From SAR324 cluster bacterium (GTDB lineage: Bacteria; SAR324; NAC60-12), in contig JADFZZ010000021.1 in the NCBI GenBank assembly GCA_015232315.1, forward strand, positions 2,006 through 66,005: DNA of 64,000 nt, read 5' to 3'. The notes beneath the pieces were generated by a model, which saw only the letters and a program-made list of their open reading frames with translations, ran no database searches and was not told the origin of the DNA. Of this stretch, positions 1 through 46,102 are shown in pieces. The number at the start of each line of letters is the position of its first letter. The first letter of the stretch is position 1. Position numbers and translations under genes: made by a program.

Positions 1-1990
1 GTAAACCCGTCAAATTCAGGAAAATAACCTGAGAAATTCCAAAACCCATTAAAAAGACACCACATAAGCCAAGAAGCGCGGGAGTGAGCATAATCGCGAA
101 CGTTGTGTTCATATTGGAATGAAATTCATCGGCAATCTTGAATACGAGTTCCAGATGATGTAACCCGCTATCCAATAAAATAATCTGCGCTGTGTCTGTG
201 GCAATGGTAGAGGCGCCGCGCATGGAGATCGAAACTTGTGCTTTTTTCAGTGCGATTGAATCATTAATGCCGTCTCCGATATAACAGATAAAATGACCTT
301 CCTTTTGCAGTTGTTCAATAAGATCCGCTTTCTTTTCCGGCAGGCACTGCGCAAAATAGTGATCAATTCCCAGTTCCCGCGCTAATTTTTTCGTGGGAAT
401 TTCATGATCACCCGAGATAATATACATGGATTTGATATTCTTGCGTCGTTTGAGTTGACGGATCACTTTTCTTGCTTCCTCACGTATTGTTGTCAGCAGT
501 TCAATTCCCCCTATGACCTGGTGATCCACAGCGACCATGACCAGGGAATCGCCTTCTTCATGACTGATTTGCTGTTGTTTCGCCAAAATTCCGGGAATGG
601 TCATACCGGACATTTCCATAAACCGTTGACTGCCCACATGCACCGTTTTTCCATCCACAACCACAAGGACTCCATAACCAGCCTTGAACTGACTTTCATC
701 GAAGGACGGTATGCTTAACTGGCGTTTTTTAACCTCTTTCAGAATGGCTTTAGCCAGGGGATGGGTTTGTTTGGATTCAGCGGCACCGGCATAAACCAGC
801 ACCTCCTCTTCGCTGAAATGCGAGCAACAATGAATCTGGCCGATATGCGGCTGTTCCTCAGTCAAGGTGCCTGTTTTATCAAACACGATCGTATCCACCT
901 GTTGCAGTAACTCAAAAGTGCGTCCATCCTTAATCAGAATTCCCTGCTGGGATGCAATGTTGGTATAATTCAGGATGGTTGTAGGGGCAATGACCATCAT
1001 TTTATTTTTGGGGTGCGTATAAATGACAGCGAGCGCGCCACTGAAGCCAACGATCGGTAAGGCAACCCCTCCGGCGATTAAGGCGGGTTTCACCAAATTA
1101 TCCGAAAGGGTTTGCGCTCGTAATTGCTGTGTTGATTTATAGTCAATGGTATTGTTCAGAATATTGGTGATTTTTGCCACGGTACAATCCTGACCGGCTT
1201 TTTCCACTTTAATATAGATTTTCCCTGATAAAATAACTGTTGCCGCAAAAACTCCATCTCCCTGTTCTTTTTCAATGGGCCGTGCCTCGCCTGTCAGAAT
1301 ATGTTCATCAATGCTCGCGATGCCCTCAACAATAATCCCATCCGCGGGAATCACTTCACCTGCCTGAACCACGACAATATCATCCACACCAAGATCGTTG
1401 AACGGTATTTCAGTTTCAACCTGATTCACCACAATCCAGACTTTTTCGGGCTGTTGATAAACAACATCGAACAATGCCTGTTTGGATGTTTGAACCACTT
1501 TTTCCATAAGCCTCATTGCGGCCCTGATGACAACAAGAATCAGGCTTGCCGCAAAAAATTTTCCTGTGATGACACATCCCGCGATGGTAATACTCATGAG
1601 TGTGCTGACATGGACTTTTTTCTGTTTGATCAGTTCATAGCTTTTTTTGAAGGTCTCCTGACTGGCGTACATAATGAAAGGAAGACTGAGCACGGCAACA
1701 CCAGGGTAGACAAACCCGGCAAGGCAAAGTCCAAAGGCGGACCAGATCGCCAGAAAGTCATACATTTTTTTCTTTTCAGCATTTTTATGGATCAGCTCAT
1801 ACTTTGTCTCTGATTTTTGAATTTGTTGAGAATCCTCTTTAAACATTTGCGTGACTTTATCCTGAATGCCGGTTTTGATTTCAGGCGAGTCATTCGTTTT
1901 GACAGGAAGTTCACCTTCCTCCATACTTTTTATGTATTCCTGATAACCCACATATAAGATTCCGCCCAAAGCGATCGCTTCAAAAATCAT
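1..1990 (-). CDS. P-type ATPase. The catalytic core resembles P1B ATPases, but there is no N-terminal metal-binding domain and no CPC motif. The N-terminus is at 1990 and the C-terminus lies beyond the window start.
   Basis: The reverse-strand translation begins MIFEAIALGG. It contains VDTIVFDKTGTLT (phosphorylation motif), ISGDHE, LPEKK and GDGINDSIAL. AGGAG sits 7 nt upstream of the ATG. The ATG overlaps the TGA of the upstream R gene (ATGA). The N-terminal 25 aa are similar to those of the ATPase at 48800-50863. Confidence 0.8.
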   Translation of the reverse strand, partial: MIFEAIALGGILYVGYQEYIKSMEEGELPVKTNDSPEIKTGIQDKVTQMFKEDSQQIQKSETKYELIHKNAEKKKMYDFLAIWSAFGLCLAGFVYPGVAVLSLPFIMYASQETFKKSYELIKQKKVHVSTLMSITIAGCVITGKFFAASLILVVIRAAMRLMEKVVQTSKQALFDVVYQQPEKVWIVVNQVETEIPFNDLGVDDIVVVQAGEVIPADGIIVEGIASIDEHILTGEARPIEKEQGDGVFAATVILSGKIYIKVEKAGQDCTVAKITNILNNTIDYKSTQQLRAQTLSDNLVKPALIAGGVALPIVGFSGALAVIYTHPKNKMMVIAPTTILNYTNIASQQGILIKDGRTFELLQQVDTIVFDKTGTLTEEQPHIGQIHCCSHFSEEEVLVYAGAAESKQTHPLAKAILKEVKKRQLSIPSFDESQFKAGYGVLVVVDGKTVHVGSQRFMEMSGMTIPGILAKQQQISHEEGDSLVMVAVDHQVIGGIELLTTIREEARKVIRQLKRRKNIKSMYIISGDHEIPTKKLARELGIDHYFAQCLPEKKADLIEQLQKEGHFICYIGDGINDSIALKKAQVSISMRGASTIATDTAQIILLDSGLHHLELVFKIADEFHSNMNTTFAIMLTPALLGLCGVFLMGFGISQVIFLNLTGL

Positions 1991-3168
1991 AATTCTCCTT
2001 TGTGAATATACCCGCTCTTGTGAAAATATGAAAAATAGGTGGACAGCAAATTCACATCCAGGGGGGGGCAATGAATACCGGAACCCGCTAACCCTTCCTG
2101 CGTGAGGCCATCTTGAAATCGGGGTTTGTTTTCAGAAAAAAAAGCTGAGAGTCTAAGCATCAGCAATATTCGGGAATATAGCTCCTCTTTCGGCTTGGCT
2201 GAAGCACGTTTTTTTAATTGGACGGTCCAATCTTTTTCGCTGACTTCTTCCAGTGAATAACCCAGAGTCCGTACATGTTCAAAAAATACTTTCCAGGAAA
2301 TGGACTGCGCGTTCAATAAATGAAATACCTTTCCAAACGATTCCTGTTGGTTTGATAAACGACAGATGGCCTGACTGATATAGTCCACAGGCGCAACATT
2401 GACTTCGACATCCGCGATAGGAAAGGTGCCCATTTGAATACAGCTTTTCAGCAGACCACACAAGGAATCATTGAGATTCCCCATAATCCCGGTTTGAGTA
2501 TGTCCCCAGACTCTTCCGACTCGATGAAGGGTGGCAGGCAACCCTCTCTTTTGCGCGGTCAATACCAGTTGTTCCGCAACCCATTTACTTTGTCGGTAGC
2601 CACCACTCAAAGTTTTTCCATCAGGAATAGCCGTTTCAGTGATATCCGCGTTATGGTGAGCAGGACTGAAAAATACGGCAATACTGGAAATGAAATGAAC
2701 CGGTTTTGTTTGGGTCATGCCTGCTAAACGAAGCACTTCCTGTGTGCCCAGCACATTTGGCTTTTTCAAATCAGCGTAAGGACGCGCCGCGTTCACTTGC
2801 GCGCCATTATGATAAATCACCTCAATACAACGGGATAAATCACCAAACTGAGATTCTGAAAGCCCTAAGAAGGGTTGAGACAAATCCCCAACGACAGGAA
2901 TGATCCGGGAATGGTACCTCTCGTTCCACAGTTGGTAAAACTGCAACTGCCTGGTTAAACGCTGTTTTCCTTCGTCAGAATCACGACAACGAACCAGACA
3001 ATAAATATCGGCCTGTGTTTCATTGAGGAGCACCTGCAACAAATAGGCGCCAATAAAACCTGAAGCACCTGTCAAAAAAACCGAAGGGGGATTCTGCCAG
3101 TTTTTGGCTAAAGGCCCTTGAAACTGAATGTTGGTGTCTAAAACAGCTTCCGTTTCCAAATCGATCAT
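1987..3168 (-). CDS. Stand-alone thioester reductase (an SDR resembling an NRPS/PKS terminal R domain).
   Basis: 393 aa. NAD(P)-binding motif TGASGFIGAYL and catalytic YRQSK. Its order and size match the fused R domain at the end of the ORF at 43088-46102. The start overlaps the stop of the aminotransferase gene (ATGA). Confidence 0.8.
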   Translation of the reverse strand: MIDLETEAVLDTNIQFQGPLAKNWQNPPSVFLTGASGFIGAYLLQVLLNETQADIYCLVRCRDSDEGKQRLTRQLQFYQLWNERYHSRIIPVVGDLSQPFLGLSESQFGDLSRCIEVIYHNGAQVNAARPYADLKKPNVLGTQEVLRLAGMTQTKPVHFISSIAVFFSPAHHNADITETAIPDGKTLSGGYRQSKWVAEQLVLTAQKRGLPATLHRVGRVWGHTQTGIMGNLNDSLCGLLKSCIQMGTFPIADVEVNVAPVDYISQAICRLSNQQESFGKVFHLLNAQSISWKVFFEHVRTLGYSLEEVSEKDWTVQLKKRASAKPKEELYSRILLMLRLSAFFSENKPRFQDGLTQEGLAGSGIHCPPLDVNLLSTYFSYFHKSGYIHKGEL

Positions 3169-4514
3169 GCGATTCCGGTCATGGAACGTTTCACCTGAGC
3201 GATGCTGGATTCCAAAGTGGCGACCAACTCATCACATTCACTCTCTGTAATGACAAATGGGGGGGAAATCAATATGTGATCCCCATCCTTGCCTGTTCCT
3301 GTACCAAACCGACCTCTGAGAATCAGCCCGTTATCGAGAGCTTTCTGAACCACTTGTTCGGTGAGTTTCATGGAACGGGGAAACGGTTGATGCGTTGTTT
3401 GATCCTGAACAAATTCAATCCCGATCAGCAGACCCTTACCACGGACATTACCAATGAGAGGCTCTCGCCCAGCCAGTTTTTCCAGTTCTTTTTTCAGATA
3501 AAGCCCCATGGAGGCGCAACGCTCAATCAGATTATGTCGCACGATGTAGTTCTGAACAGCCAGGGCCGTGGCACAACTGACAGGATGTCCGGAGTAGGTT
3601 ACCCAGGCGGGAATGGTATCTTTATTGTTTTTAACAAATAGTTCCCATATCCGTTTATGCACAATAGTGGCTCCAATGGGTGCGTAACCACTGCTCAGGC
3701 CTTTTGCGCCTGTAATGATATCGGGGATTGCGTTCCAGTGTTCAATGCCAAAATTTTTGCCCGTTCGTCCAAATCCGGTAACCACTTCTTCGGAAATAAA
3801 CAAAACATCGTATTGATCACAGATTTCCCTGATTCTTTCATAATACCCAGGAGGCGGGACAATCCCGCTCCCTGCTCCGCCAATAATCGGTTCAGCGATA
3901 AAAGCGGCGACCGTGTCGGGGCCTTCCTTTTCGATCGTGGTTGCCAATTCATCAGCACAGGCGAGAGCACAATCCGGGTGGGTGAGTTGAAACGGACACT
4001 GATAACAATGAGGGGCGTGAATATGCGGAAAATTCAACTCGTAAGGCGCCATCACATCCCGTTGCACAAACACGCTCCCGGACATGGATAAGGCCGCGAC
4101 CGTCCGTCCGTGATAACTATGCCAACGGCCAATGATCTTCCATTTTTGGCTATTTCCCTGTTCAATATGATAGTGTCTGGCGATCAGCAGTGCGAGTTCA
4201 TTCGCGACGGAGCCACCCGTGGCAAAAGCCACCCGATCCATGCCTTCCGGAGCCATGTCAATAATGACATCCGCAAGCTGTTCCTGCGATTCGTGGGCAA
4301 ATTGCATTTTGTTCACAAACGCGATTTTACGTGATTGCTCCGCCATGGCCTCCGCGATTTCAGGAACACCATGTCCAATGGAAACCACATGGGTTCCGCC
4401 AATACCATCCAGATAACGTTTGCCATCGGTGTCATAAATATAAACGCCTTCACCGCGTTCCGCGAAAGGACGAGGTTTTTTACTGAAAAAAACATGAGAT
4501 TCCGAGTGTTTCAT
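3165..4514 (-). CDS. Class-III PLP-dependent aminotransferase (omega-transaminase-like).
   Basis: 449 aa. Motifs FISEEVVTGFGRTG and DIITGAKGLSSGY (PLP lysine). There is an AAGGA RBS and an ATG start. It lies directly downstream of the megasynthase. Confidence 0.85.
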   Translation of the reverse strand: MKHSESHVFFSKKPRPFAERGEGVYIYDTDGKRYLDGIGGTHVVSIGHGVPEIAEAMAEQSRKIAFVNKMQFAHESQEQLADVIIDMAPEGMDRVAFATGGSVANELALLIARHYHIEQGNSQKWKIIGRWHSYHGRTVAALSMSGSVFVQRDVMAPYELNFPHIHAPHCYQCPFQLTHPDCALACADELATTIEKEGPDTVAAFIAEPIIGGAGSGIVPPPGYYERIREICDQYDVLFISEEVVTGFGRTGKNFGIEHWNAIPDIITGAKGLSSGYAPIGATIVHKRIWELFVKNNKDTIPAWVTYSGHPVSCATALAVQNYIVRHNLIERCASMGLYLKKELEKLAGREPLIGNVRGKGLLIGIEFVQDQTTHQPFPRSMKLTEQVVQKALDNGLILRGRFGTGTGKDGDHILISPPFVITESECDELVATLESSIAQVKRSMTGIA

Positions 4515-4550: not shown

Positions 4551-7500
4551 CTACATCAACATTGGAAATGAACTCACGGATTGATCAGGGTTGAGTACCA
4601 TTTCCTCCAAAACGGATTGAAAATTTTCTATGATCCTGATCACGGTTTCCGCGTCAAAGAGATCTTTTCTGTAGCGCCACCATCCCCGGAGTGTATTTCC
4701 GGTTGGCGTCTTCTTTTCCCAAATCAGCAGTGCTAAATCCGGTCTTGTCACCAGTTCATCCAACGGCATGGAACTGATGGTCAGATCGGGTAAAAGGAAT
4801 TGTTCGGACGGTTCCATCGGGAAGAAACTGAGCAGTATTCTGAATAAAGGCGTATCAACCTTCCGCTCCGGTTGCAGGATTTTTGACATTTGCTCAAAGG
4901 GTAAATCCTGGTTGGAGATAGCCTCATTCACAACCTGTTGGGCCTGACGCAACAAGTCAGAAAAACCGGGATTTTCACTGAAATCCAGACGCAACAGCAA
5001 CGTGCTTCCAATCATCCCGATCAGATGTTCCAGTTCAGACTGGTTACGATTCGCAAAGGGAGATCCCACCACAATATCCTGACAACCACTGTAGCGATAG
5101 AGCAACGTGGTCAGTGCGGACAAGATCGACGTGAATAAAGTGGTTCCCGTCTGTTTGTTCAGGTTTTTTAGATTTTTAACCAGCTCCGAAGGCAGTTCAT
5201 AAAGCTCCGTGCCTGCCCGGAAAGCCGGAACCGGTTGACGAGGTCTATCGGCAGGAAGTTCCAACAGCGGCGGTTCTCCCCAGCCTAACCAATTCCGCCA
5301 ATAATTGAGTTTTGTTTCAAGGGCCTCTCCGCTGAAAGACTGTTGCTGCCAGACCGCGTAATCCGCATACTGTATCGGCAGACCCGGCAAGGATACAGAG
5401 GCACCGGATATGATGGCTTTATAGAAGATAGTCAGCTCTTTCAGAAAGATTTCCATGGACCAGACATCCATGACGATGTGATGGACGCAAAGCAACAGAA
5501 TATGAGATTCTTCCGCCAGCCTGATCAACGTGACACGCAACAAGGGGCCTGTGACCAGATCAAAGGCGCGGCGTTGAATGTCCTCATCCGCCAATCGTTT
5601 CACTTCTTCAGTCTGTGCCTGTTCAGACATTCCCCGCAAATCTGTGATTGTGATATTGATGGTGGAAGTTGGAGCGATGGACTGAACCGGAGAACCTTCA
5701 ACCAGAGGAAACGTAGTCCGCAATATTTCATGGCGATGTACAATTTCATTCAAACTTTGTTGTAAGATCTTAAAGTCCAGCTTTCCCGTGAGCCGAAACC
5801 AGCGGGGAAAATTATGAAAACAGCCGTCAGGGTTTGATGTCTGGTGCAGCCAATACCTCTGTTGTGAAAAAGAGAGGGGCATGTTGCCTTCACGGGATAC
5901 GGGGATCAGATCGGTATCCTGAACAGTTCGTTCCTGAATGGCCTCATCGTTGACGGAACGATCCGGGGTTTCTCCGATCCGCTGTTGTTCCTCCGGTTGA
6001 ACCTCGGGAAACTTTTTTGCGTATTCGACGTAAATGTGGTCAGACAGTTGCTGGACATTGCCATAATTATAAAGGGCCGTCGTTTTCAGTTTAATGCCAA
6101 ATATTTTATTGATTTTATTAATAATCTCAATGCTCATCAGCGAATCCACGCCATAGTCCAAAAACGATTTTTCCCGGGCTACAGAATCGTTGACCAGTCC
6201 CAGCGTACTGTTCACACACGCTGTAACTTTTTCTTCAATGGTCAGCTTCAGGGATTTTTTCCCGACATCCGTTTGCGGAGATAACGCGGGAAAGTTGTCA
6301 GACGAAGGCGAAGAAGGACTACGTTCTTTCGTTGTTATGGAAGAAGGTGTTTGCTTTTGATAGGCCACCACACCGTTGCTTTCAGCGATCACGATTTGGT
6401 GGGGTTCATGCAACTCTCCCAGTCCCGGATCTCCAAGGTTCGTGATCTTCGCATAGCCTTCTTCCTCAAGCACCCTGTTCCACAACCTGAAATTCAACAA
6501 CGGCCCCCCGCCCAGGCGGATTTCCTCATCTTCATACAACCACCAGCCTTTCAACAAACCGAAAGTTAAGGTGACAAAATCAGGCGCTTTGGACAGTTCA
6601 TTAATGATCAAGACCCCGTTCCTTTTCAAAAGTGATTTGATCTGGGTCAACGTGTTCCTGATGCGTTTGGTGGCATGAAGTACATTTGCCGCCAGGACAA
6701 TATCAAAATCGTCAGGCTTGTAGCCCTGATTTTGAAGATCCTTTTCAATATCCAAAACACTAAACGTCATAAAAGGATATTGTTCACCCAATAGTTTTTT
6801 GCCGTATTGGGTCAACGTGGGGGAAATATCCGTATAGACATAATGGATATGGGGACTGTAGGCCTTGACCGCCTCCAACACCAGGGAGGTGGTTCCACCT
6901 GTTCCAGCGCCGATTTCCAGTATTCGGATTGGTGCTTCATTTCCTTTCGTCAAAGAAAGTCTTTTTTCCACATACAGACGTAAACTTTCGGCGACCCGTG
7001 TATTAAAATAATCCGCGGTAACATTTTTTTTGTATATCCCTTCCACAAGTTCCGGCGATGAATCGGGGAACATGATATTCGTTGCGGGAGTCTCCCCCCT
7101 CAGGATCGCCGGATAATGCGCTATACATTCCCCAAGAAGCCTGAGGTGGGGTTGAATTGACGGAAACTGCCGGAGTAAATCCTCCTTGATCCGCAATTGA
7201 AATTTCCCGGTTTCTTGTGCGGTGATGATATGTTCGCCCTGTTTTTCAATAACACCTGCCCGGGTCAGAATGTCCAGATGCGCGTCAAACAAGCGGTCAT
7301 AGTCCGGTTGTATTCCGAGGTGTTGTCTCAGTTCCGTCCTTGTATAGCGTTCATCTGGGGTTTTGAACACTCCCATTCTCTGATAAGCCGCTAACAGCAA
7401 TTCACGGCTGAATGCTTCCAATTCCCCCAAGGCCACTTCAAACGTTTGGAGTTTTTTGATCTGCTCGGGCAATCCCTGGATTTGCTCAGAAAAATTTTCA

Positions 7501-10500
7501 ACCACGGAGGGGATCGCTTCAGGGTACAGATGGGACTGTTTTTTCAGTTCAATCCCCATTGCGGTTAAGGCGTTATTCTCCGCTTTCACAACAGCAAGTT
7601 GATTGAAGGGATTTTCCAGTGCCCTTTCGATGGCCTGCATCCCCTCCTGAACTTCAATGGAGTAGATCCCTTGCGCTGAAAGTTTTTCCCTGTATTTTTC
7701 ACTGGCCACAACACCCACGTTGCCCCAATATCCCCAATTGATGACCTTAACCGGATAAGACATTTTCTGTTTCAGATACTGCGCGAAGGAATCTTCAAAG
7801 GTGCTGGCCGCGGCATAATTACTTTGTCCCTGATTTCCCAGAAACGACTGGATAGATGAAAAGAACATCATAAAATCCAAAGCTTCTCCAGCCAGTGCCC
7901 TGTGCAGAAAAACACTGCCGTTGACCTTTGGCGCAAGCACTTGCGCAAGGATTTCCTCATTCATGTTCATGACAGAACTGTCTCGCAGAACAAGAGCGGA
8001 ATGAATGGCTCCGTTGATCGGGCCAAACGATGATTTGGCTTGTTCCAAGGCCTGCCTCATACTTTGCGGGTTTGTCACATCGGCCTGAATGTAGAGTACT
8101 TTACCACCCGCTTTTTCTATCCGGGCGATTTTATCTGCCAGAGCATCATCCATTTTGCTTCGGCCCACCCAAATCAGACGGGCCTGCACCGCACTGGCCA
8201 GATATTCACTCAAGGCGAGTCCGATGCCGCCTGCGCCACCCACAATCAGATACACGCCCTGCTGTTTAAAAGGAGTTTTCTGTATCTCGGACAGTGAGAT
8301 CGGCAGTAGTTTTTTGACATAACGGATTCCGTCACGGAGGGCGATTTCTTCAGCATCCTTCCGTGAGGATTCCATGACAATCAGGTCCCCGGTTTTTGAC
8401 AGGGAGTTTTGCAGATCCGCCAGACTGACATCCACACAACGGGTTTCCAGATCCGGAAATTCTCTTGCCACACTTTTTGAGAATCCTGTAACGGAGGCGA
8501 CATAAGGATTGAGGGATTTTTGTGAATAAACCTGCCAGGCATTCGTCGTGATGACAGTAATTTTTATACGGTCCCGGACAGTTTCTTTTCTGTTCAGAGC
8601 CTGAACCAGTCGGAACAGAGAAAAGACGCTTTCTTCCTGACTTTGTTTCAGCACCTCCGGATCCTTATCCAGGGGATCATAAATTCCAGCAAAAAAATAA
8701 ATCACGTCCGGCGCCTCAATTTTTTCCAGCAGATGGCCTATGGCCGAGGGATCATTCGTCTGAATTTGAGTCCGTTGAAGCACTCCCTGCCTTGAAAACG
8801 CAGGACTGCTTTCCCCCTCTTTCCCCAGGAGTATCTCATACACCGTCGCATCACGATGCGCCTCTGCCAGGTAACGGGATAAATCCCTGATTTCCTGAGC
8901 CACATCCGCAGGATAAATGAGGATAACGGTGGCGGCGGAAGGCATAGACTTAGAGTCTGGAGCCAAAGGCGAGGGAACCCATTCAGGCACACAAAAGGTC
9001 AAGGGCCTTTGCTGACGTTGCATAGCACGAGGATCGGCTTTACGTCCCTCAAAGCCCAAAAATTCTATCGCCGGATTGCCCTGCTCATCAAAGAGCCGGA
9101 TATCCCCAAGGAGGCTGTCGTTTCCTGAATCAGGCTGTAATTGACAGTGTCCCCATAAGGGCTGTTGCCTGGAATTTTGATAAAACAGAACTTTTTCTAT
9201 GCGGAACGGAACAAAAGTTTCCTCTAGCGTTCTGTCCATGGCCAATAAGGATAATTCGAAACCGCCATCGATCAACCCCGGATGCAGTTGATATTTGGCT
9301 AATCCAGACAAGGCTGCGGGTGGGATCAATCGGCAAATCGCTTCACGATTCCCCTGACGGATGGATTCGATCCATTGATACGCTGGACCCAGGTCAATCT
9401 GACGCTTACGTTGACTTTGGAAAAAGTCGTCAACCGGGATTGCCTTGGAACAGCGGTCCAATAATTTTGTCAAAAATCCGGAGCCCGGTTTTACATCGTC
9501 AAAGCGTGGTTCTGTCAGAATTTTTCCGGAAACATGAGTGAGCCAACGATCCTTATTTTTTCCGGAACTGATGAGTTTAAAAGAGGATTTATTAGGTTCC
9601 TCAGGAATGAAGGCTAACTGAACCGTACAGCCTTCGTCAGGAATGATCAGGGGTTGCTCAAAAAGGACATCCTCCAGGACACAGTTTTTAACTCCAAAAG
9701 TAATTTCCGCGGCTTCCAGTATCATGGAAATATAACAAGATCCTGAAACCACCATTTTATTATAAATCAGGTGATCCGCCAAAAAAGATAATTTATCCCG
9801 ATGAAAGAAGGTTTCAAACACCGTACTTTCCAGAAAGGGCGAGATGATCTGTTTATCCAGCAACGGATGCAGTTGAGTGTTGGCAGAGTGTGAAGGTTCC
9901 AGACGCTCTGTAGGTCTGTCGATCCAATAACGCTGACGCTGGAAAGGATAAGTTGGCAAAGCCACCCGGCGACGTTGATAGTCATGGTCAAAAGCTGTCC
10001 AGTCTATTGCCGCTCCAAGTCCATACAACTCACCTAAACTTTGCAGAAGTTGTTGCCAATCCTCAGCGCCTTTACGCAAACTGGGAAGCCACACCCCCAC
10101 GTCTTCAGGCAAACAGGAATGTCCCATACCCAATAAGACGGGTTTCGGCCCTATTTCCACAAACACCTCACAACCCTGCTTGTGCAACGTGGCCATGCTT
10201 TGGGCAAAATTGACAGGCTGAGTGATATGCTGACACCAATACTCCGGTGTGGTTATTTCCGCGGAAGCCACTTCACCGGTCAGATTAGAAATCAGGTTGA
10301 TTCCGGGTAATGATAACGTAACCTCCTCAACAACCTTGGAAAACGCCGGTACCATGGGTTCGATCAGAGGCGAGTGGAACGCATGAGAAACCGTTAAGGG
10401 GTTTGTCTTGAGCCCCTCAGTTTCCAATTTTGCGATAATGGTCGCAAGGGCCTCCCTCTGGCCTGAAATCACAATATTTTCAGGGCCATTGAGGGCAGCA

Positions 10501-28318: not shown

Positions 28319-29515
28319 TTATTCAGCTTTTATTGAAATTCCTTCCATGTTTTCAAATTGGGCTTGAAGTCCCCAGCCATTGAACAGCATTTTATCTTCA
28401 GTAACGGCTAAACACAGTTCATTATTTCCTTCCTTGAGTGGGAGATACAATTCGTAGAACAATCCCATCGTTCCTAAAAATCTATAATCTCTTGAACTCT
28501 CTTTATTGTTGCCGGAAAAGAGCAACTGGTCATTCAGATAGACCTTCACCTCATCGTTGAATCCAAACTTCAGTTTTTTGATTTGGGCGGTTTTGGCGGA
28601 AATGACTATTTTTGCGAAAACCGTATCGTTGTCTTTTACAAGCCCCTGGACTTTGGCGAGATTGATTAAACCGGAACCTTCGCTGTCGTATGTTTTCCAA
28701 CTGAGGCCTTGTTTATCCGCATTTTCAAGAGCAATTTTATTTTCCAGAAATTTTTGAGGGAAAGCCTTGGAAACCGACCAGGAGGCCACGGCTCCCTCAA
28801 GCCTGGTTTCTTCTTTGAAGGTAGTTGCTTTAAGGATGGGCATACCCTTTGTAAAACTGAAATTGGCGAAACGTACAGGTAGTCCTAGTGCCCATAACAT
28901 AACGCCACCTGGTGCGCTTTCGCGTTTTAATGTTACGGCTATGGCTGGTGTCGCCATGTCCTGGATATACATTTCAGCTTTATCATCCGCCAGGAGAATT
29001 TTGACATGCACAAATTCATTCAAGGGATATTGATTGTTTGAACCATATCCCTTTTCAGGTGAATATAATTGCCAGCTTTGCAACCCATTGAAAAAGGTCT
29101 GATATTGACTGGCATCCGGATTTCCGGATTGGTGTCCACGAAGATAAAAATGTTCGAAATTTTCTGAATCCTGGGCACGGAAGATAAGTCCCCCCATTGT
29201 TCTTCCAGTGGCTAAACTAATCGAAGGGAAGGCTAGATCGAATTCAATTGTTCCATTTGCGAGTCCCTCATTTTTTAATATAGCCAATCCATTTTGAAGA
29301 AGCAGACTTTTTCCCCCCTGAAAATCCTCCACTGTAGAAGCAAAAGGTAAAAAGGGCATCATTTCAACGATGTTCCACTTTTCAGGATCAAAAGCGGGAA
29401 TCATGGAATTTTGTGGAGTGACTGTTGGGGTTGTTGGTGTATTCGCACTACAACTTCCGATAAGTAAGATAAAAATCGAAATGAAGGTGATTATTCTAAA
29501 TTGTATTTGTTTCAT
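28319..29515 (-). CDS. Hypothetical lipoprotein.
   Basis: The likely start is M39 (MKQIQFRIITFISIFILLIGSC, signal peptide plus lipobox). There is no recognisable family. Confidence 0.45.
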   Translation of the reverse strand: MKQIQFRIITFISIFILLIGSCSANTPTTPTVTPQNSMIPAFDPEKWNIVEMMPFLPFASTVEDFQGGKSLLLQNGLAILKNEGLANGTIEFDLAFPSISLATGRTMGGLIFRAQDSENFEHFYLRGHQSGNPDASQYQTFFNGLQSWQLYSPEKGYGSNNQYPLNEFVHVKILLADDKAEMYIQDMATPAIAVTLKRESAPGGVMLWALGLPVRFANFSFTKGMPILKATTFKEETRLEGAVASWSVSKAFPQKFLENKIALENADKQGLSWKTYDSEGSGLINLAKVQGLVKDNDTVFAKIVISAKTAQIKKLKFGFNDEVKVYLNDQLLFSGNNKESSRDYRFLGTMGLFYELYLPLKEGNNELCLAVTEDKMLFNGWGLQAQFENMEGISIKAE

Positions 29516-29687
29516 ATAAATCTCCTGAATAAAGGAATGGTTGTAAACGCTACAACGGGTGAATAAAAAAATTTTGAGAATGGGGAACGTGGTTTGGAAT
29601 ATCCACAGGAAAATGCAAACGCCTGGCAATTCTTGCGGATCTTCTTGAAGAAAAACGATGCCGACATTTTAAGTGATGTCGCTGATT

Positions 29688-29891
29688 TTAATCTTGTTGT
29701 GAAATGGTAAGTTGTTGTCCTGATTTTTTGGGCTGAAACAAATAAAAGAAAAACGCCATCAAGGGGGGCGTAAGCACCAGACTCAGCAGAAAAATTCCCA
29801 AGAAGCCGATTTTGCTTTTTCTGCCGTAAAAGCCCACCAAACCGCTTAACAATATCCAACCACCTAGCAAAATTACAAATTTTAATGTCAT
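29688..29891 (-). CDS. Small (67 aa) two-TM membrane protein.
   Basis: Strong SD (AAGGAG) 6 nt upstream of the ATG. There are two hydrophobic helices. Confidence 0.4.
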   Translation of the reverse strand: MTLKFVILLGGWILLSGLVGFYGRKSKIGFLGIFLLSLVLTPPLMAFFFYLFQPKKSGQQLTISQQD

Positions 29892-29914
29892 ATATTCTCC
29901 TTTGAATCAGAAAA

Positions 29915-31087
29915 TCAGGGCTGTAAAATAGTGCGGTAAATCGTATCAGCAATCGACAGCACATCAAATGGAATTTCAAAATCGTACGTTTCTGAAACAG
30001 CACGATTCAACGCAATGATTTCATGAAAATCATATTGTTGTGAAATATTTCTCAAGGGAACTCCATCAATCGCCTGTATAATAATTTTTGCGTAAATACC
30101 GCCCAATTCTATGGGACGATATGGTTCCAGCGTCATCAATACCCCATATTTCACCAGTTCTGAACCCTGATCTGAAAAAGTAGGAATTCCCTGTTTATGG
30201 AGAATATTCACCAAACTGCCAATGTTATCAATAGCGATTCCCCGGTGTTCCGTGAAATACATGCTTTGGATTTCTTTTGAAGCGAGCTCAAGCACACAAT
30301 CATACATTTTTGTTTTAGCCAGAGTGATATGAATGGTCGCATTGGGAATATGACAGGGAACAATGCGAAACCCATACTCCAGAGAAACATCCTCAATCTC
30401 TTTCAATCCGGCTGAAATGCGGCCAGTTGGCGAGTCTTCATAAATCATCCCCATTGTTTTAAATTTATATAAATCATGAAAAAAAGTTACTTTCTTTGCA
30501 GTGAAAGCCCCCAAATCAAGTGAGAAGACATTGTCCCTTTCACTGAAATTGTTGCCTTTTACAATACCAAGATTTCTTGCATGCGGGCTTTCCAACACCA
30601 GTAATGGAATTTGTGGATCGGTATTTGTCAGCGCCAGAGCGGCCTCCGGCCCCATCACAATCAGTAAATCTGGTTTTTGAGTGCTTTGACTCAGTGCTTC
30701 AATTTTTTTGATTTCCTGTTGTTTCTGCTCTTCTTTCCATTGAGAGGAATAAAAAAAGTCTGGAGCAAAACGGATTTTCTCATTGGACAAATTTGCCGAG
30801 GCCCACTTCCATAAAGCTTGGGTATCCACGGGATTTCCCAATTTTGGAATTTTTGTACGAGTAAGCCACCCCTCTTCCATCAATCCATAAAAGATGACTT
30901 GAAGCAAGGCTTTATAGTTACTTAAAGGGCCACTTTCAAAATAGGCTATCGTATAGACTTTCGGGGGGATTGATTCTGATTGTTCTTGAGCGAACAACAG
31001 ATAATTTCCAGTAAAAACAGGAATTATCGCACAGCAAAAGGCAATTGCGATTCGGAATAATTTTTGATCAATAAATATTTTTCCCAC
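29915..31087 (-). CDS. Periplasmic substrate-binding-protein-like protein (ABC_sub_bind / PBP-like).
   Basis: N-terminal signal or TM segment. An alternating beta-alpha pattern (YTIAYFESGP, LLIVMGPEAALAL) is reminiscent of type-I periplasmic binding proteins. Family call is tentative. Confidence 0.4.
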   Translation of the reverse strand: MGKIFIDQKLFRIAIAFCCAIIPVFTGNYLLFAQEQSESIPPKVYTIAYFESGPLSNYKALLQVIFYGLMEEGWLTRTKIPKLGNPVDTQALWKWASANLSNEKIRFAPDFFYSSQWKEEQKQQEIKKIEALSQSTQKPDLLIVMGPEAALALTNTDPQIPLLVLESPHARNLGIVKGNNFSERDNVFSLDLGAFTAKKVTFFHDLYKFKTMGMIYEDSPTGRISAGLKEIEDVSLEYGFRIVPCHIPNATIHITLAKTKMYDCVLELASKEIQSMYFTEHRGIAIDNIGSLVNILHKQGIPTFSDQGSELVKYGVLMTLEPYRPIELGGIYAKIIIQAIDGVPLRNISQQYDFHEIIALNRAVSETYDFEIPFDVLSIADTIYRTILQP

Positions 31088-31090
31088 AGA

Positions 31091-31495
31091 CTACCAGTAA
31101 TAATCAATCAAACACTTTTTGACACACTCTGTTTCTACTTTCACACAAGGTTCAGAGTGAAGTTCCAGCTCGAGGTCACCTCTGCATAAAGCCAGTTCAA
31201 TCGGGCATTCCCGTAAACAAATAAGAAATTTGCCCAATTGAGGTTTTCCTTTGCCTTTCTGCGCCGTCAGCAAAATATTTCTCATATATTGCTTCCTGCA
31301 ATCCCTCAATCGGGTATTCAGATCGCCATGACTCGTAAAGCATTGTTCCCGCTCCTTGATGATCGTCCGGGTTTGCTCCAGAATCTCGCTCACAGTAATC
31401 GTTTCATTCGCATGAATCTGACTGTTTCCTGATATACCTGTCAGCCCTATCAGAATAAATGTGCTTAAACACAAAAAATCGCGCATATTTTTCAT
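31091..31495 (-). CDS. Small secreted cysteine-rich protein (134 aa, 8 Cys).
   Basis: Signal peptide MKNMRDFLCLSTFILIGLTGISG. No family recognised. Confidence 0.4.
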   Translation of the reverse strand: MKNMRDFLCLSTFILIGLTGISGNSQIHANETITVSEILEQTRTIIKEREQCFTSHGDLNTRLRDCRKQYMRNILLTAQKGKGKPQLGKFLICLRECPIELALCRGDLELELHSEPCVKVETECVKKCLIDYYW

Positions 31496-31507
31496 AGGTT
31501 ATACACG

Positions 31508-32494
31508 TTAATTCCCTGATGCGGCTTTTTTTGTATTGTCCGGTTTAGGCAACGGAACAACTTTGGCGGGAACAGTAGGGGAATCTGTGTTGTTGTCATT
31601 TTTTTTAGCATCCGGAACAGTCTTGGTCTGCGGTTGTTGGTCATTTTCGGCACTTAAAATGATAGGGAGCGATTTTCCATCATTTCCAACAATAATCACT
31701 TTGCTGTTGGTAGAACTCGCCAGTTTGAGTGTGGCCTGGATGCCTTTCCATTTGAGGTATCGGTCACTCAGTGTGCTGGTCACAATTTCCTGAAACCTGG
31801 AAATTCCGGTAGCTTCAATTTCCAGTCGCTTCAATTCCTGCCGTTCTTTTTCCAACAGAAACTGATATTGCAGAAACTGCTGTTCATACCGTAATTTGGT
31901 TTCAATGGCTGTATTGATGAGGTCGGGCAGTCGGATATTCCTGATAATGATATCAACAAACACGATCGGCATATCGCTATTTTGTTCGACGGCTTCAATG
32001 AGCATGTCATTTTGAAATTCATCAATTCGGCTTTTATACAACTCTTCAGGCCGATATTGTCCAATTATTTCTCTGACAGATGAAATGGTGACAGGATTCA
32101 CAATTTTATCCTCATATTCCGGACCAACCTTTTTATGAAGTTTGGGGAGTTGTTCGTATTCCAGATAAAATCTGACTGAAACCTCCAGAATGATGGTCAA
32201 ACCATCTGAGCTCAACACAGAGGTCGTAATGCGACGCTCCTGAACACGCGTGTCATAAACGTGCATGACGTTCAGGGGAAATATGACATGGGTGCCTTCA
32301 CCATACACCGTTGTCATGTCTGTTCCGCCGAGAAATCTACGGTATAACACCCCCCCTTCGCCGGAACCAACTGTTACAAAGACAAATTGAAACAAATAGG
32401 CCAGCAGGAACAAACAAACAGATCCAATCAGGATACCTGTAAAAAACAGGTTATCCCGATTATTTTTCAACCATAACTTTACGCCTGTGCTCAT
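31508..32494 (-). CDS. SPFH/band-7 (prohibitin/stomatin-like) membrane protein.
   Basis: N-terminal TM helix, SPFH core (GGVLYRRFLGG..., RITTSVLSSDGLTIILEVSVRF), a coiled-coil segment and a Pro/Lys-rich tail. Confidence 0.8.
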   Translation of the reverse strand: MSTGVKLWLKNNRDNLFFTGILIGSVCLFLLAYLFQFVFVTVGSGEGGVLYRRFLGGTDMTTVYGEGTHVIFPLNVMHVYDTRVQERRITTSVLSSDGLTIILEVSVRFYLEYEQLPKLHKKVGPEYEDKIVNPVTISSVREIIGQYRPEELYKSRIDEFQNDMLIEAVEQNSDMPIVFVDIIIRNIRLPDLINTAIETKLRYEQQFLQYQFLLEKERQELKRLEIEATGISRFQEIVTSTLSDRYLKWKGIQATLKLASSTNSKVIIVGNDGKSLPIILSAENDQQPQTKTVPDAKKNDNNTDSPTVPAKVVPLPKPDNTKKAASGN

Positions 32495-42413: not shown

Positions 42414-42700
42414 AATCTTATCGCTCATCTCAATTTAAAAAATCCTTTGAAAAACTTCCTTTATCTGTGCAAGAGCAGGCTAAAAAAGCCTACGCTCTTT
42501 GGAGCGATAACCCTTTTCATAATTCCCTTGAATTCAAGGTTATCAATAAGAAATTAGATGTTTATTCCGCAAGAATTAGCCTGAATTGGAGAGTGTTAGG
42601 ACTTTTTTAAGGAGGCTTCCCCACCAGCGGTAGGGAACCACAAAATATTCGTAACGATTGGAAGAAAGGAGCAAGTATATGATTATTCGCACGTTATCCG
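42401..42700 (+). pseudogene. RelE/ParE-like toxin gene interrupted by a frameshift in a T6 run.
   Basis: The track ORF at 42401-42610 encodes ...VYSARISLNWRVLGLF and then stops. The next frame continues as ...KEASPPAVGNHKIFVTIGRKEQVYD, which resembles the conserved RelE C-terminal ...IGHRKDVY. The T run is at about 42603-42608. The reconstructed protein would be about 101 aa. Confidence 0.4.
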
Positions 42701-43065
42701 ATATTGAACAGACTGACCGTGATGTTGCCTGGGGGAATGGACAAAGCCGAAGATTTCTCATTGCCAGTGACGGAATGGGTTTCACGTTGACGGATACTGT
42801 CGTTCTGGCGGGTTCAGAATCAAGATTGCAATATCGTAATCACGTTGAAGCTTGTTATTGCATTGAAGGCGAAGGGGAAGTTGAGGTGGATGGTAAAATT
42901 TACCCGATCAAGACCGGCACAATGTATGCGCCAAATCAACACGATATTCATTATCTTCGAGCGACTAAGACAATGCGTCTGGTGTGTGTGTTTTCGCCTG
43001 CGTTACAAGGCCCTGAATCCCATCAACTGCAACACACAGACAATCCTTCCGCCTCAAGTTATTAA
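42679..43065 (+). CDS. Ectoine-synthase (EctC)-like cupin.
   Basis: 128 aa. MIIRTLSDIEQTDRDV...EACYCIEGEGEVEVDGKIYPIKTGTMYAPNQHDIHYLRATKTMRLVCVFSP aligns along its length with Halomonas EctC (MIVRNLEEA..TDR...EAVYCIEGEGEVE...DGKIWPIKPGDIY.LDQHDEH.LRA.KTM.L.CVF.P). AAAGGAG RBS. Confidence 0.85.
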   Translation: MIIRTLSDIEQTDRDVAWGNGQSRRFLIASDGMGFTLTDTVVLAGSESRLQYRNHVEACYCIEGEGEVEVDGKIYPIKTGTMYAPNQHDIHYLRATKTMRLVCVFSPALQGPESHQLQHTDNPSASSY

Positions 43066-43087: not shown

Positions 43088-46000
43088 ATGAATTTTTCTC
43101 AGACTTCAATGACTGATTTTATAGAGCTTGTTCGTACACAGGCTTCCAAAAATCCGCACAATATTGCCGTTTATCACCGTAATCAGATACTCAACTATGA
43201 ACAGCTTGAGCGTCGTTCTAATCAACTCGCTCATTATTTACTGAGTCTGAAGATCCAACCTGAGCAGTTGATCGGTTTATGTCTGCCCCGTTCGATCCTG
43301 TTGACGGAGGCCATGCTTGGAATTCTAAAGGCCGGAGCGGCTTATGTGCCGTTAGATCCTGCTTATCCACGCAAACGTCTGGAAGACATGCTGGAAGACA
43401 GTCAACTGAATATTGTGCTCCTGAATGATGCCACCGATCATCTGATTTCATCGTTAAAAACCCTCAATTCTGAACTGCAAAAAATTCATCTGGCATTGAA
43501 CTGGGAGATCATTGCGTCATTCCCTTCAACGCCTCCCGATATCACCTTCCGTGACGACCAACTTGCCTATTGTTTATACACATCAGGTTCCACAGGAAAA
43601 CCCAAAGGGGTGCTGATGGAACACAAACCGTTGTCCAATTTAATCCACTGGCATCTTAAAAATCGTGTGACTCCCGCACGTCAATTGCAATTCGCACCTC
43701 TGAATTTTGACATTTCTTTTCAGGAGATTTTCGCGACCTGGTGTTCAGGTGGCAGTTTGTTTATCATAGACGATTCTGTCAGACGCAATCCATCCGCATT
43801 ATTGGATTTTATCTGCACCCACGCCATAGAAAAACTCTATTTGCCATTTACGGCCCTGCAACAATTGTCTATTATCGCACACGACAGTGATCACTACCCT
43901 GTGCAATTGCGTGAGGTGATTACCGCTGGAGAACAATTGCAGATTACTCCGGCAATTCGGGAACTCTTTACACGTACCGGTGCCCGGTTGCATCATCACT
44001 ATGGCGCAACGGAGTGTCAGGATGTTACCGCACTGGATCTGACAGGTGATCCGCAAGATTGGCCCTTACTCCCCTGCATTGGAAAAGCGATTGATAATAT
44101 ACAGATCCATATTCTGGATTCGCGGTTATCTCCGGTAGGCAGGGATGAAACAGGTGAACTTTATGTGGCGGGAGATGGACTGGCACGTGGTTATCTGCAT
44201 CGGCCGGAACTGAATGAGGCTCGATTTATCAACACACCAGATATCGGACGCCTTTATAAAACCTGCGACAGAGCCCGATACGGCACCGATGGACAGATAG
44301 AATTATTAGGACGATCTGATCATGCGGTGAAAATTCGTGGATTCAGCGTGGAGTTGGGGGAGATTGAAGCGATTTTACTGCAACATAAAGATATAGATCA
44401 GGCAGTGGTAGTGGCACATCAAGATGATTCCGGTCATAAACGACTGCTGGCCTATGTGGTGTTACACAAAAACAAAATACTATCCACCCAGCAATTGCAT
44501 GAACATCTGGAACAACGTTTACCTCAATACATGATTCCGGCAATGTTTATTCTCTTGGACGGCCTGCCTATGACGCCAACCGGCAAAGTCAACCGTGGTG
44601 ACTTACCACCACCTTTTATGCAGGTGCGTCCGGAAGTGGATCACAGTTTTGAATCGGCACGTACCCCCCTGGAAGAAACCTTGACTACAATCTGGCAAAA
44701 CGTGTTGAACATTGAACAGATCGGAATCCATGATGATTTTTTTTCACTGGGAGGAGATTCCTTTTTGCTGATTACATTATTCAGCACGATAAAGAATCAA
44801 CTGGGAACGGATGTCCCACTGGCTGATTTGCTACAAGAACTCAACATTGCCGATCTGGCCAACTTATTACAGCATAAGGCCCCGCATCCAAGCCATACCG
44901 CTTTGTCAGTCAATGAACTACAGGGCTATGCTATCTGTCCGCTTCAATCTCAGCTTCCGGCAGTTACAGAACTGAATAAGCCAAAAAATATTTTATTAAC
45001 AGGTGCGACGGGATTTCTGGGTTCATTCCTGTTACAGGAATTGCTGGAGAAAACCGATGCTGATATTTATTGTCTGGTGCGGGGCAAGGACCCCTCACAG
45101 GCGTTACAACGTTTGCTCGACAGTCAGAAACAGCGTGAGTTATCCCTTTCAACAGATTTCCACAAACGACTGCATGTGGTGTGTGGTGATATGGCCAAAC
45201 CCCTTTTGGGGGTAACCCGAAAACAATGGAAGCATCTGACTGAACTGATTGACAGTGTTTATCATGCCGCGGCAAATATTAACATGTTATACCCTTATCC
45301 GGTACTTCACGCCATCAATGTTCAGGGAACACAGGAGATTATTAAGTTTTCCACGCATTCACGTTGCAAAACCTTGCACTATATTTCCAGCACAGCCATT
45401 TTTGAAGCTCAGGGATTTTTTCATCGACAACAGCCGATTCCTGAAAATATTGATATTCAGGAATGTGCCCGTATTTACGGCGGTTATGCTCAAAGTAAAT
45501 GGGTTGCTGAAAAACTGTTGCATCAGGCTCGGGAAAAAGGGCTTGCTGTGAGTATCTATCGTTTGGGGATGTTGACAGGACACAGCCGTTCCGGCGTATC
45601 CAATATCAACGACATGATGTGCAAACTGCTCAAACAGTTTGTGGTACAAAAACGCATCCCTGAATTGACCACTCCACTGGATATGACTCCGGTTGATTAT
45701 GTAGCTCAGGTGATAGTCCATTTATCACAACAGACTCCGGAAAATGGCTACTGTTTTCATGTTGTGAATCCTCAACCGCCTTCTTTTTTTGAATTATACC
45801 GGTTCTTCAACCAATTGGGATATCCTCTGCAAATGATCAATTATGCTCAATGGATTGATCAACTTGAAAACCTGTCACTGGATTCAAAGGAAAACGCTTT
45901 GGGAACGATGTTGCCCATTTTTACGGAAAGCGTTGAGGGCAAAACCTACCTGGAATTTTCTTCTTTATGTCAGAACTTTAATCATGATAATACTCACCTT

Positions 46001-46102
46001 GGATTAAGCAACAGTTCTATACGTTGCTCTGCGGTAACACCGGATTTGTTGTCAACCTATTTGAATTATTTTGTACGGCAGGGCTTTTTGAGCGCTCCCT
46101 AA
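43088..46102 (+). CDS. Single-module NRPS with domains A - PCP - R (thioester reductase).
   Basis: A domain: LAYCLYTSGSTGKPKGV, FDISFQEIF, YGATE, TGKVNRGDL. PCP: FFSLGGDSFLL. R domain: LTGATGFLGSFLL and YAQSKWVAEKLL. The upstream part of the track ORF (42845-43087) overlaps ectC and was discarded. Confidence 0.9.
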   Translation: MNFSQTSMTDFIELVRTQASKNPHNIAVYHRNQILNYEQLERRSNQLAHYLLSLKIQPEQLIGLCLPRSILLTEAMLGILKAGAAYVPLDPAYPRKRLEDMLEDSQLNIVLLNDATDHLISSLKTLNSELQKIHLALNWEIIASFPSTPPDITFRDDQLAYCLYTSGSTGKPKGVLMEHKPLSNLIHWHLKNRVTPARQLQFAPLNFDISFQEIFATWCSGGSLFIIDDSVRRNPSALLDFICTHAIEKLYLPFTALQQLSIIAHDSDHYPVQLREVITAGEQLQITPAIRELFTRTGARLHHHYGATECQDVTALDLTGDPQDWPLLPCIGKAIDNIQIHILDSRLSPVGRDETGELYVAGDGLARGYLHRPELNEARFINTPDIGRLYKTCDRARYGTDGQIELLGRSDHAVKIRGFSVELGEIEAILLQHKDIDQAVVVAHQDDSGHKRLLAYVVLHKNKILSTQQLHEHLEQRLPQYMIPAMFILLDGLPMTPTGKVNRGDLPPPFMQVRPEVDHSFESARTPLEETLTTIWQNVLNIEQIGIHDDFFSLGGDSFLLITLFSTIKNQLGTDVPLADLLQELNIADLANLLQHKAPHPSHTALSVNELQGYAICPLQSQLPAVTELNKPKNILLTGATGFLGSFLLQELLEKTDADIYCLVRGKDPSQALQRLLDSQKQRELSLSTDFHKRLHVVCGDMAKPLLGVTRKQWKHLTELIDSVYHAAANINMLYPYPVLHAINVQGTQEIIKFSTHSRCKTLHYISSTAIFEAQGFFHRQQPIPENIDIQECARIYGGYAQSKWVAEKLLHQAREKGLAVSIYRLGMLTGHSRSGVSNINDMMCKLLKQFVVQKRIPELTTPLDMTPVDYVAQVIVHLSQQTPENGYCFHVVNPQPPSFFELYRFFNQLGYPLQMINYAQWIDQLENLSLDSKENALGTMLPIFTESVEGKTYLEFSSLCQNFNHDNTHLGLSNSSIRCSAVTPDLLSTYLNYFVRQGFLSAP

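Follow-up and report, generated by a model that had tools for sequence, protein, structure and literature searches.

We found that a hybrid megasynthase, part polyketide synthase (PKS) and part nonribosomal peptide synthetase (NRPS), ends in a condensation (C) domain that is not followed by an adenylation (A) domain and a peptidyl carrier protein (PCP). The gene lies in a 64,000-nucleotide stretch (contig JADFZZ010000021.1, positions 2,006 to 66,005; hereafter the window) of a metagenome-assembled genome (MAG) of a SAR324 cluster bacterium. We consider it likely that the acceptor of this C domain is a soluble nucleophile. On balance, the domain probably releases the polyketide bound to the second acyl carrier protein of the megasynthase (ACP2) by condensing it with a free amine, the predicted product of a gene cassette flanking the megasynthase gene. 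The enzyme logic is known and the setting is new: an amine-capping release domain fused to a PKS and accompanied by an aeruginoguanidine-like amine cassette in SAR324.

The Pfam domain order of the megasynthase is AMP-binding (residues 195–720), ketoreductase (KR; 758–1200) and ACP (1318–1382) in the N-terminal part, and ketosynthase (KS), acyltransferase (AT), dehydratase (DH), KR, methyltransferase (MT), ACP (3518–3599) and Condensation (3640–4082) in the C-terminal part. The protein consists of an A-KR-ACP loading module of the keto-acid type, one KS module and the terminal C domain. The AT motif, HAFH, is of the malonyl type. Ahead of the loading module, residues 1–130 (16419–16808, minus strand) form an orphan A-subdomain-like segment (…PLTDDGQLD…), in which the catalytic Lys is replaced by Gln and which has no counterpart in related loci. 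Against the PDB, the loading region matched the A-KR module 6ULW (799 bits) and the A-PCP structure of McyG (4R0M, 626 bits). Since the A-KR-ACP loading module matches 6ULW and has a McyG-like A domain, a hydroxy-acid starter is predicted: the acyl chain should begin as an α-keto acid that is reduced to the hydroxy acid. The chain would then be extended once with malonate and processed by the KR, DH and MT domains. Pfam searches of the megasynthase detected neither a thioesterase nor a reductase (R) domain, and the C domain is the natural release catalyst because the cluster has no thioesterase.

A preliminary description of this locus, made from the window sequence, had placed the terminal domain at 4554–5888, in agreement with our C domain at 4563–5891, and was right that the megasynthase ends there with no A-PCP in cis. 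The stop codon comes three residues after the Pfam match, and tblastn searches of the whole window with A, PCP and C queries detected neither a hidden or frameshifted A-PCP beside the C domain nor a second C domain. A stand-alone PCP of 87 aa farther along the cluster (21090–21353), below the usual cut-offs for open reading frames (ORFs), had been missed. The description also counted about 150 aa from the C-domain core to the stop. The distance from the HHxxxD motif is 303 aa, so both lobes are present, and the match to PF00668 (314 bits) covers profile positions 2–445 of 456. In L001, an independently assembled strain with 97.8% identity, the gene order around the C-terminal C domain is unchanged, and the domain is 98% identical in protein sequence. 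This second assembly indicates that the terminal architecture is real and not an assembly artefact. We also rejected truncation because the downstream genes are tightly coupled and because the C-terminal end coincides with the ends of the sister and stand-alone relatives. Thus, the C domain almost certainly lacks an A-PCP partner in cis.

The C domain is complete and apparently active. Core motifs C1 (LSFSQQRYWL), C2 (RHEILRTTF), C4 (YADYAVW) and C6 (NQDLPFE) were found, and the C3 motif, HHIVMDV (residues 3776–3782), keeps both His residues and the Asp. The preliminary description had singled out the Val at the end of this motif, where Gly is expected. The Val is indeed there, but a residue other than Gly at this place is not rare. 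Among 116 homologous C domains, the residue after the motif Asp is Gly in 90, Ala in 12 and Val in 3, and the 26 without Gly include domains with an A domain following. We rejected the Gly-to-Val change as a diagnostic sign, since 22% of ordinary homologues also lack the Gly. The C5 motif is degenerate (IGMIGSTLLLR; canonical IGFFVNTLVLR), with Ser in place of an Asn that is kept in 110 of the 116 homologues. Loss of both the Gly and the Asn occurs in 5/25 protein-ending C domains versus 0/91 others (Fisher p = 3e-4, relatedness ignored).

All types of C domain share one fold. By family, the window C domain is classed as LCL-like, apparently become chain-terminating, and it is no homologue of VibH. 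Its closest PDB matches are the C domains of Txo1/Txo2 (2e-78), then 5U89 and TycC, and the 55 PDB sequences that match at E <= 1e-10 do not include VibH (1L5A). Database matches at 42–53% identity are mostly cyanobacterial C domains with an A domain following. The nearest relative is the terminal C domain of an A-PCP-C protein from Ca. Kentrum (60% identity), the other relatives reaching at most 53% among the 120 best matches listed from a search of 5.8 billion proteins. The window and Ca. Kentrum domains form a sister pair with 100/100 bootstrap support, indicating that the C domain tracks the amine cassette and not the upstream module type. The next relatives (P0001, P0002, P0003, P0004, P0007 and P0009) all stop 0–6 residues past the C domain. 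The Gly of HHxxxDG is missing throughout this group, and in most members the C5 Asn is gone as well. P0001, P0003 and P0007, the three that were viewed in context, are stand-alone proteins consisting of a TubC_N docking domain and a C domain. The last carrier, which precedes each of them, is of the PKS type for P0001 and of the NRPS type for P0003 and P0007; convergent genes follow P0003 and P0007, and the contig ends 170 nt downstream of P0001. When we searched 1.84 billion representative sequences with a profile of the terminal-C clade, giant multi-C NRPSs dominated the ranking through their summed scores, and the clade was not delimited.

The genes directly following the megasynthase encode an aminotransferase and a free-standing thioester reductase, as had been noted. 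The preliminary description took them merely as something other than an A-PCP module, which holds, but they are part of a conserved cassette. The full cassette comprises a chorismate-lyase-like enzyme, an aryl-acid ligase, a PCP, a HemN-like radical S-adenosylmethionine (SAM) enzyme, the reductase, a thiamine diphosphate (ThDP) carboligase, the aminotransferase and three sulfotransferases. The free reductase is closest in the PDB to the R domain of MxaA (myxalamid; 307 bits) and is 47–56% identical to the reductases of other cassette loci; the corresponding ranges are 53–62% for the ligase and 50–56% for the lyase. The best solved stand-alone match of the ligase is 4-chlorobenzoate-CoA ligase (70 bits), with A-domain chains of the NRPS LgrA scoring slightly higher (77 bits). 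The 87-aa PCP is encoded in the same operon as the 479-aa ligase, the two forming a split A and PCP pair, and by tblastn it is 55% identical to the PCP adjoining the ligase in the Dolichospermum-type locus L007. This PCP is presumed to carry the aryl acid that the free reductase would release as an aldehyde. The HemN-like enzyme is found together with the ligase and PCP in L007 and L011, and has a homologue in L027. Judging from L001, genes for the ThDP enzyme and a hydroxylase–sulfotransferase fusion lie just past the left edge of the window. The ThDP enzyme is closest to BbmA/CsmA, followed by acetolactate synthases.

Cassettes were found in Microcystis, Dolichospermum, Trichodesmium, Spirulina and other cyanobacterial MAGs, in Ca. 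Kentrum, in Thioploca/Thiomargarita and in another SAR324 MAG. Cassette proteins of the window and L001 are 46–71% identical to their Ca. Kentrum, Dolichospermum-type, Trichodesmium and Spirulina counterparts. Homologues of the aminotransferase were collected from 12 genome loci at >=58% identity and 38 loci at <=51%. Eleven loci, at >=62%, adjoin homologues of the reductase, lyase, sulfotransferases, HemN-like enzyme and ligase where the contig is long enough, as well as the ThDP enzyme and the hydroxylase–sulfotransferase fusion. No cassette genes were found at the 58% locus (L019) or the 38 loci at <=51%. The aminotransferase thus marks the cassette, because the neighbours split sharply by its identity. 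In cassette loci, a C domain closes assembly lines of different kinds: a PKS ACP-C end in the window and an NRPS A-MT-PCP-C end in Microcystis, both with the aminotransferase gene directly next, and in Ca. Kentrum an A-PCP-C protein in addition to a PCP-C protein with the aminotransferase directly next. The Microcystis locus (L005) covers 21 kb of a reported 34-kb cluster and encodes a sulfatase, the lyase, a prenyltransferase, O-methyltransferases, the A-MT-PCP-C NRPS, the aminotransferase and the free reductase, the cassette members present being only the lyase, aminotransferase, reductase, sulfatase and NRPS C domain. The A-domain code of this NRPS, DVEDFGAVEK (read by alignment to a PheA fragment), is acidic, which would suit a basic amino acid. 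L005 fits the published description of the agd/mgd cluster, with its arginine-recognising NRPS, sulfatase/sulfotransferases, prenyltransferase AgdJ and 'microguanidine amide' products (PMC12371840; PMC10304443).

From the observed domain architecture, motifs, synteny and C-domain sister relationship, we infer the chemical steps and the acceptor as follows. The C domain would take the polyketide from ACP2 as its donor, and a free small-molecule amine would replace the carrier-bound amino acid. An amide, or possibly an ester, would form and the product would be freed from the megasynthase. As the last domain, with nothing after it and fused to the last carrier, the C domain has the chain-terminating layout of the Kj12C type, in which a stand-alone terminal C domain moves the chain to free phenylethylamine (PMC6195595). 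VibH also uses a small-molecule amine as acceptor (PMC10510592). The likeness to VibH is one of mechanism only, not of family: VibH-like condensation with a free amine, one of two options raised in the preliminary description, is the best fit in mechanism when the cassette context is considered, but the domain itself is LCL-like.

Gene context points to a likely acceptor amine. The chorismate-lyase-like enzyme would supply 4-hydroxybenzoate, which the stand-alone ligase would load onto the 87-aa PCP, where the HemN-like enzyme may methylate it. The free thioester reductase would release the aldehyde, the ThDP carboligase would add a pyruvate-derived C2 unit to give an α-hydroxyketone, and the adjacent aminotransferase would convert this to a 2-amino-1-arylpropan-1-ol. 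The HemN-like enzyme and the hydroxylase domain may together add a hydroxymethyl group, and the three sulfotransferases, one of them (off-window) fused to the hydroxylase domain, would sulfate the molecule. The predicted amine presumably resembles the Hphpa trisulfate unit of Microcystis aeruginoguanidines. Coordinates are collected in Table 1.

Table 1. Features of the window, and one related protein type from other cassette loci, with positions, strand and supporting detail
Feature	Position	Strand	Detail
Free-standing thioester reductase	1987..3168	minus	TIGR01746, 317 bits; overlaps aminotransferase stop by 4 nt
Class-III (omega-type) aminotransferase	3165..4514	minus	Pfam, 316 bits; starts 36 nt past megasynthase stop
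Hybrid megasynthase	4551..16808	minus	ORF of 4085 aa
Terminal C domain, residues 3640–4082, full length	4563..5891	minus	PF00668
Degenerate C5 motif IGMIGSTLLLR	4989..5021	minus	Canonical IGFFVNTLVLR
C3 motif HHIVMDV, residues 3776–3782	5463..5483	minus	Both His and Asp kept, Val for usual Gly
ACP2 (GVDSL), proposed donor carrier for C domain	6012..6257	minus	PF00550 / ACP_SdgA_C
Stand-alone aryl-acid adenylating ligase, 479 aa	16862..18301	minus	Pfam AMP-binding
Rv2949c-like chorismate pyruvate-lyase (presumed 4-hydroxybenzoate supply)	18352..18918	minus	PF01947, 66 bits
Sulfotransferase (Sulfotransfer_2)	19072..19785	minus	58–70% identity to cassette-locus homologues
HemN-like radical SAM enzyme (possible C-methylase)	19760..21103	minus	
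Stand-alone PCP (GLDS), 87 aa	21090..21353	minus	Between sulfotransferase and HemN-like gene
Sulfotransferase (Sulfotransfer_1)	21368..22267	minus	48–62% identity to cassette-locus homologues
Radical SAM/SPASM protein (anaerobic-sulfatase-maturase-like) and sulfatase	23215..26593	plus	Divergent from cluster
Four-gene operon: EctC-like cupin, A-PCP-R, GntE-like transaminase, SxtG/AGAT-like amidinotransferase	42679-48619	plus	
EctC-like cupin	42679..43065	plus	Ectoine_synth, 151 bits
A-PCP-R	43088..46102	plus	True start ATG 43088, 22 nt past EctC-like gene
Single proteins with the unusual domain order thioester reductase (TR), C, PCP (TR-C-PCP), 972–976 aa, inside cassette	L027:16242-19160; left end of L007		C domain nearest P0006 (Moorea)

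Several observations weigh against release by the cassette amine. In the phylogeny that the preliminary description called for, the Ca. Kentrum pairing is firm, but the bootstrap of the wider 'terminal C' clade is only 41–55%. Part of this clade lacks the canonical catalytic residues, since the Microcystis terminal C domain (L005:8652-10001) has HMMLAN, and P0002/P0003 have YRYIVED, instead of HHxxxD. These domains come last in A-MT-PCP modules: the Microcystis one is fused to its module, and P0003 (L060) is a separate protein, with a docking domain, that follows its module. It may be that the His can be dispensed with when the acceptor is a free amine; if not, the HMMLAN and YRYIVED domains have another role. 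Minimal seven-gene cassettes in L012 (Spirulina), L016 and L018 consist of the hydroxylase–sulfotransferase fusion, a sulfotransferase, the reductase, the lyase, the aminotransferase, the ThDP enzyme and another sulfotransferase, with no C domain, ligase, PCP or HemN-like enzyme; a halogenase-like gene (L012) and an O-methyltransferase gene (L018) are their extras. A C domain is therefore not needed for the cassette to work, and the amine may also be an end product in its own right; the route proposed here offers the reductase no substrate in those loci. Lastly, a TR-C-PCP fusion is encoded in the Dolichospermum-type and Trichodesmium loci, and its C domain falls in a different clade.

Release without an external amine, as a lactone through the starter-derived hydroxyl or by hydrolysis (like C_T or hydrolytic C domains), would suit the α-hydroxy starter predicted from the A-KR-ACP module, whose hydroxyl would be γ to the thioester after one extension, and cyclising terminal C domains are known (PMC10510592). 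However, the window domain has HHIVMDV and not the SHxxxDx motif of fungal C_T domains (PMC10510592). The sister domain in Ca. Kentrum stands at the end of a single A-PCP module, whose chemistry differs, and what the relatives have in common is the amine cassette, not the upstream chain. We regard such release as unlikely.

Polyketide-alkaloid clusters release their chains by reduction followed by transamination. The gene order PKS, aminotransferase and reductase in the window mimics this logic, and HHxxxD is lost in several members of the clade. It could be supposed, then, that the C domain is vestigial or structural, that the free reductase releases the chain and that the aminotransferase aminates it. 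On the other hand, the window C domain is full length with HH...D, the cluster has a dedicated PCP for the reductase, and orthologues of both enzymes occur in the minimal cassettes, which are free of PKS and NRPS genes, always with the ThDP enzyme and the lyase. These observations make a vestigial C domain quite improbable.

The cluster does contain an adenylating enzyme and a PCP, and an ordinary elongation C domain acting in trans might use the 87-aa PCP, loaded by the 479-aa ligase, as its acceptor. The ligase, however, is of the aryl-acid type and adjoins the chorismate lyase, so its substrate should have no amine. Moreover, in L007 and L011, both of the Dolichospermum type, the ligase and PCP adjoin the HemN-like enzyme within the cassette, which is consistent with an aldehyde route like that of carboxylic acid reductases. 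This makes the 87-aa PCP a very unlikely acceptor.

Two further alternatives involve the four-gene operon encoding the A-PCP-R protein. A longer ORF of A-PCP-R, starting at TTG, overlaps the EctC-like gene in another frame. The amidinotransferase is SxtG/AGAT-like (178 bits). The transaminase is 81% identical to GntE of genuine guanitoxin clusters (L100–L102) and 80% identical to one adjoining an A-Ox-PCP-R gene and a guanidinoacetate-methyltransferase-like gene (L103 and L104); no PKS was found within those stretches (17.6 kb and 7.4 kb, respectively). A guanitoxin cluster, suggested by the GntE NCBIfam match, was rejected, since the other gnt genes of L100–L102 are absent from the window. 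The operon looks like a self-contained set for a small guanidino or diamine compound, in which an amino acid would be converted to an aldehyde, then to a diamine and then to a (cyclic) guanidino compound. We found no homologues of its four proteins within 10 kb of the cassette in any of 15 cassette loci, longer-range linkage in SAR324 being outside the scope of this test. The two arms are thus not co-inherited at that range. When metagenomes were scanned with A-PCP-R, all matches were generic NRPS A domains (<=46% identity), and neither EctC-like nor GntE-like genes adjoined any of them; this has no bearing on co-inheritance.

This second arm is predicted to give a primary amine, and the Microcystis relatives of the pathway are guanidine compounds, so a guanidino-diamine could be imagined as the free acceptor in place of the aryl-propanolamine. 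We think this highly improbable: the arm is not in any other cassette locus with a terminal C domain, and both gene adjacency and the sister relationship of the C domains favour the cassette amine.

The other option raised in the preliminary description was a split module, in which the C domain joins the chain on ACP2 to an amino acid carried by the PCP of A-PCP-R, the R domain frees an aldehyde and the neighbouring transaminase aminates it, in the manner of MxcG/MxcL of myxochelin. A-PCP-R starts with an A domain, has no C domain of its own, keeps Asp235 (the amino-acid type) and has the transaminase next, and its match to the A-PCP-R part of MxcG scores 622 bits. Nevertheless, this is the least probable of the explanations considered here. 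The docking or COM elements that had been proposed as a check are present on neither partner, with three residues after the C domain and about 16 before the A core of A-PCP-R, where Pfam gave no docking-domain hit. The reported 26-kb gap is correct from the megasynthase gene start, but A-PCP-R is 38.5 kb from the C domain itself, on the opposite strand, and in its own chemically self-sufficient operon. A comparable A-Ox-PCP-R and GntE-like pair occurs elsewhere without a PKS, and A-PCP-R is missing from 15/15 cassette loci, including the Ca. Kentrum locus with the sister C domain.

The region between the two arms also has relatives elsewhere. In another SAR324 genome (NORP136, L013), homologues of genes from window positions 22682–40882, namely those for the sulfatase, a 175-aa ORF, a DUF697 protein, a Band_7 protein and ABC half-transporters, adjoin aminotransferase, ThDP enzyme and sulfotransferase genes. 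Because L013 carries these homologues beside cassette genes, part of the 'gap' may be a lineage-conserved neighbourhood or cluster-associated. The radical SAM/SPASM and sulfatase gene pair is possibly associated with the cluster. The cassette has a flanking sulfatase in Microcystis L005, Trichodesmium L027, L013 and L017 as well, and the recurrent sulfatase may reflect a cycle of sulfation and desulfation, for example in activation of a pro-form or in self-protection. A P-type (E1-E2) ATPase gene lies between the reductase and ThDP enzyme genes in this lineage only (L001:12525-14609; window 1–1986, minus strand), and a second P-type ATPase gene is found at window positions 48800–50863. In a gammaproteobacterial MAG, two short ORFs (L017:2552-3383) matching different parts of a C domain are located directly upstream of the aminotransferase gene. 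These are either a decayed terminal C domain or the result of sequencing frameshifts.

Annotation routinely mistakes terminal C domains that have no A-PCP for truncated modules, which makes product predictions fail. A predictive rule follows for release by the cassette amine: where such a C domain lies inside the cassette, the assembly line probably frees its product as an amide formed with a sulfated aromatic amine. This analysis widens the aeruginoguanidine-like sub-pathway, earlier tied to Microcystis, to take in uncultured marine lineages and a polyketide scaffold, and it corrects the tempting reading of a long-range 'split module' as unsupported. Loss of the Gly and the C5 Asn may mark acceptor-free C domains. 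It is possible, though we are doubtful, that the window C domain and its relatives represent a distinct and portable class of 'amine-capping' off-loading C domains, which are plugged onto PKS and NRPS lines across phyla and travel with the sulfated aryl-propanolamine cassette. This class would be recognized by HHxxxD with some residue other than Gly next, by a degenerate C5 motif, by the lack of a following A domain and, sometimes, by loss of the catalytic His, and it would span SAR324, Ca. Kentrum, cyanobacteria and giant sulfur bacteria. If so, the SAR324 cluster would make previously unseen polyketide amides of a trisulfated phenylpropanolamine, and the motif signature could predict amine-capped products from sequence.

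Among known systems, zeamine and fabclavine pathways employ a free thioester reductase and an aminotransferase to make an amine, and a stand-alone C domain then couples this amine to the chain on a carrier. Their amine is a long polyamine of PKS/fatty acid synthase origin, whereas that of the window would be an aryl-propanolamine made via a ThDP carboligase; the likeness drawn here is one of gene logic. Myxochelin biosynthesis by MxcG (C-A-PCP-R) and MxcL also brings together a C domain, an R domain and an aminotransferase, and the free reductase matches the R domain of MxcG with 278 bits. However, all domains of MxcG are in one protein, where the C domain acts on PCP-bound lysine, while the window C domain has every A-PCP at a distance, and the reductase and aminotransferase next to it are parts of another sub-pathway. 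The C domain Kj12C of the rhabdopeptide/xenortide systems likewise has no A-PCP following and passes the chain to a free aryl-alkyl amine, phenylethylamine (PMC6195595), and its layout of a docking domain and a C domain is shared by the window relatives P0001, P0003 and P0007. Kj12C docks to an NRPS T domain and the window C domain is fused to a PKS ACP; the amine proposed here is a sulfated aryl-propanolamine with its own cassette, and the likeness drawn here is one of layout and role. VibH (1L5A) resembles the window C domain in the proposed use of a carrier-bound acyl donor and a small-molecule amine acceptor, but it is free-standing and only distantly related by sequence.

The agd system of Microcystis is likewise comparable. 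Aeruginoguanidine and microguanidine products are amides of a sulfated aromatic amine. The agd pathway was reportedly described by Pancrace et al. in 2019. It differs from the window in that its acyl part is N-methyl-arginine from an NRPS rather than a polyketide built on a keto-acid starter. Genes for a prenyltransferase and for O-methyltransferases are missing from the window cluster, the Microcystis C domain lacks HHxxxD and shares only 39% identity with that of the window, and the window host is a SAR324 MAG, not a cyanobacterium. Nevertheless, the lyase, aminotransferase and free reductase of Microcystis L005 are 50%, 65% and 48% identical to those of the window, and there, too, a sulfatase is present and the assembly line ends in a C domain directly upstream of the aminotransferase.

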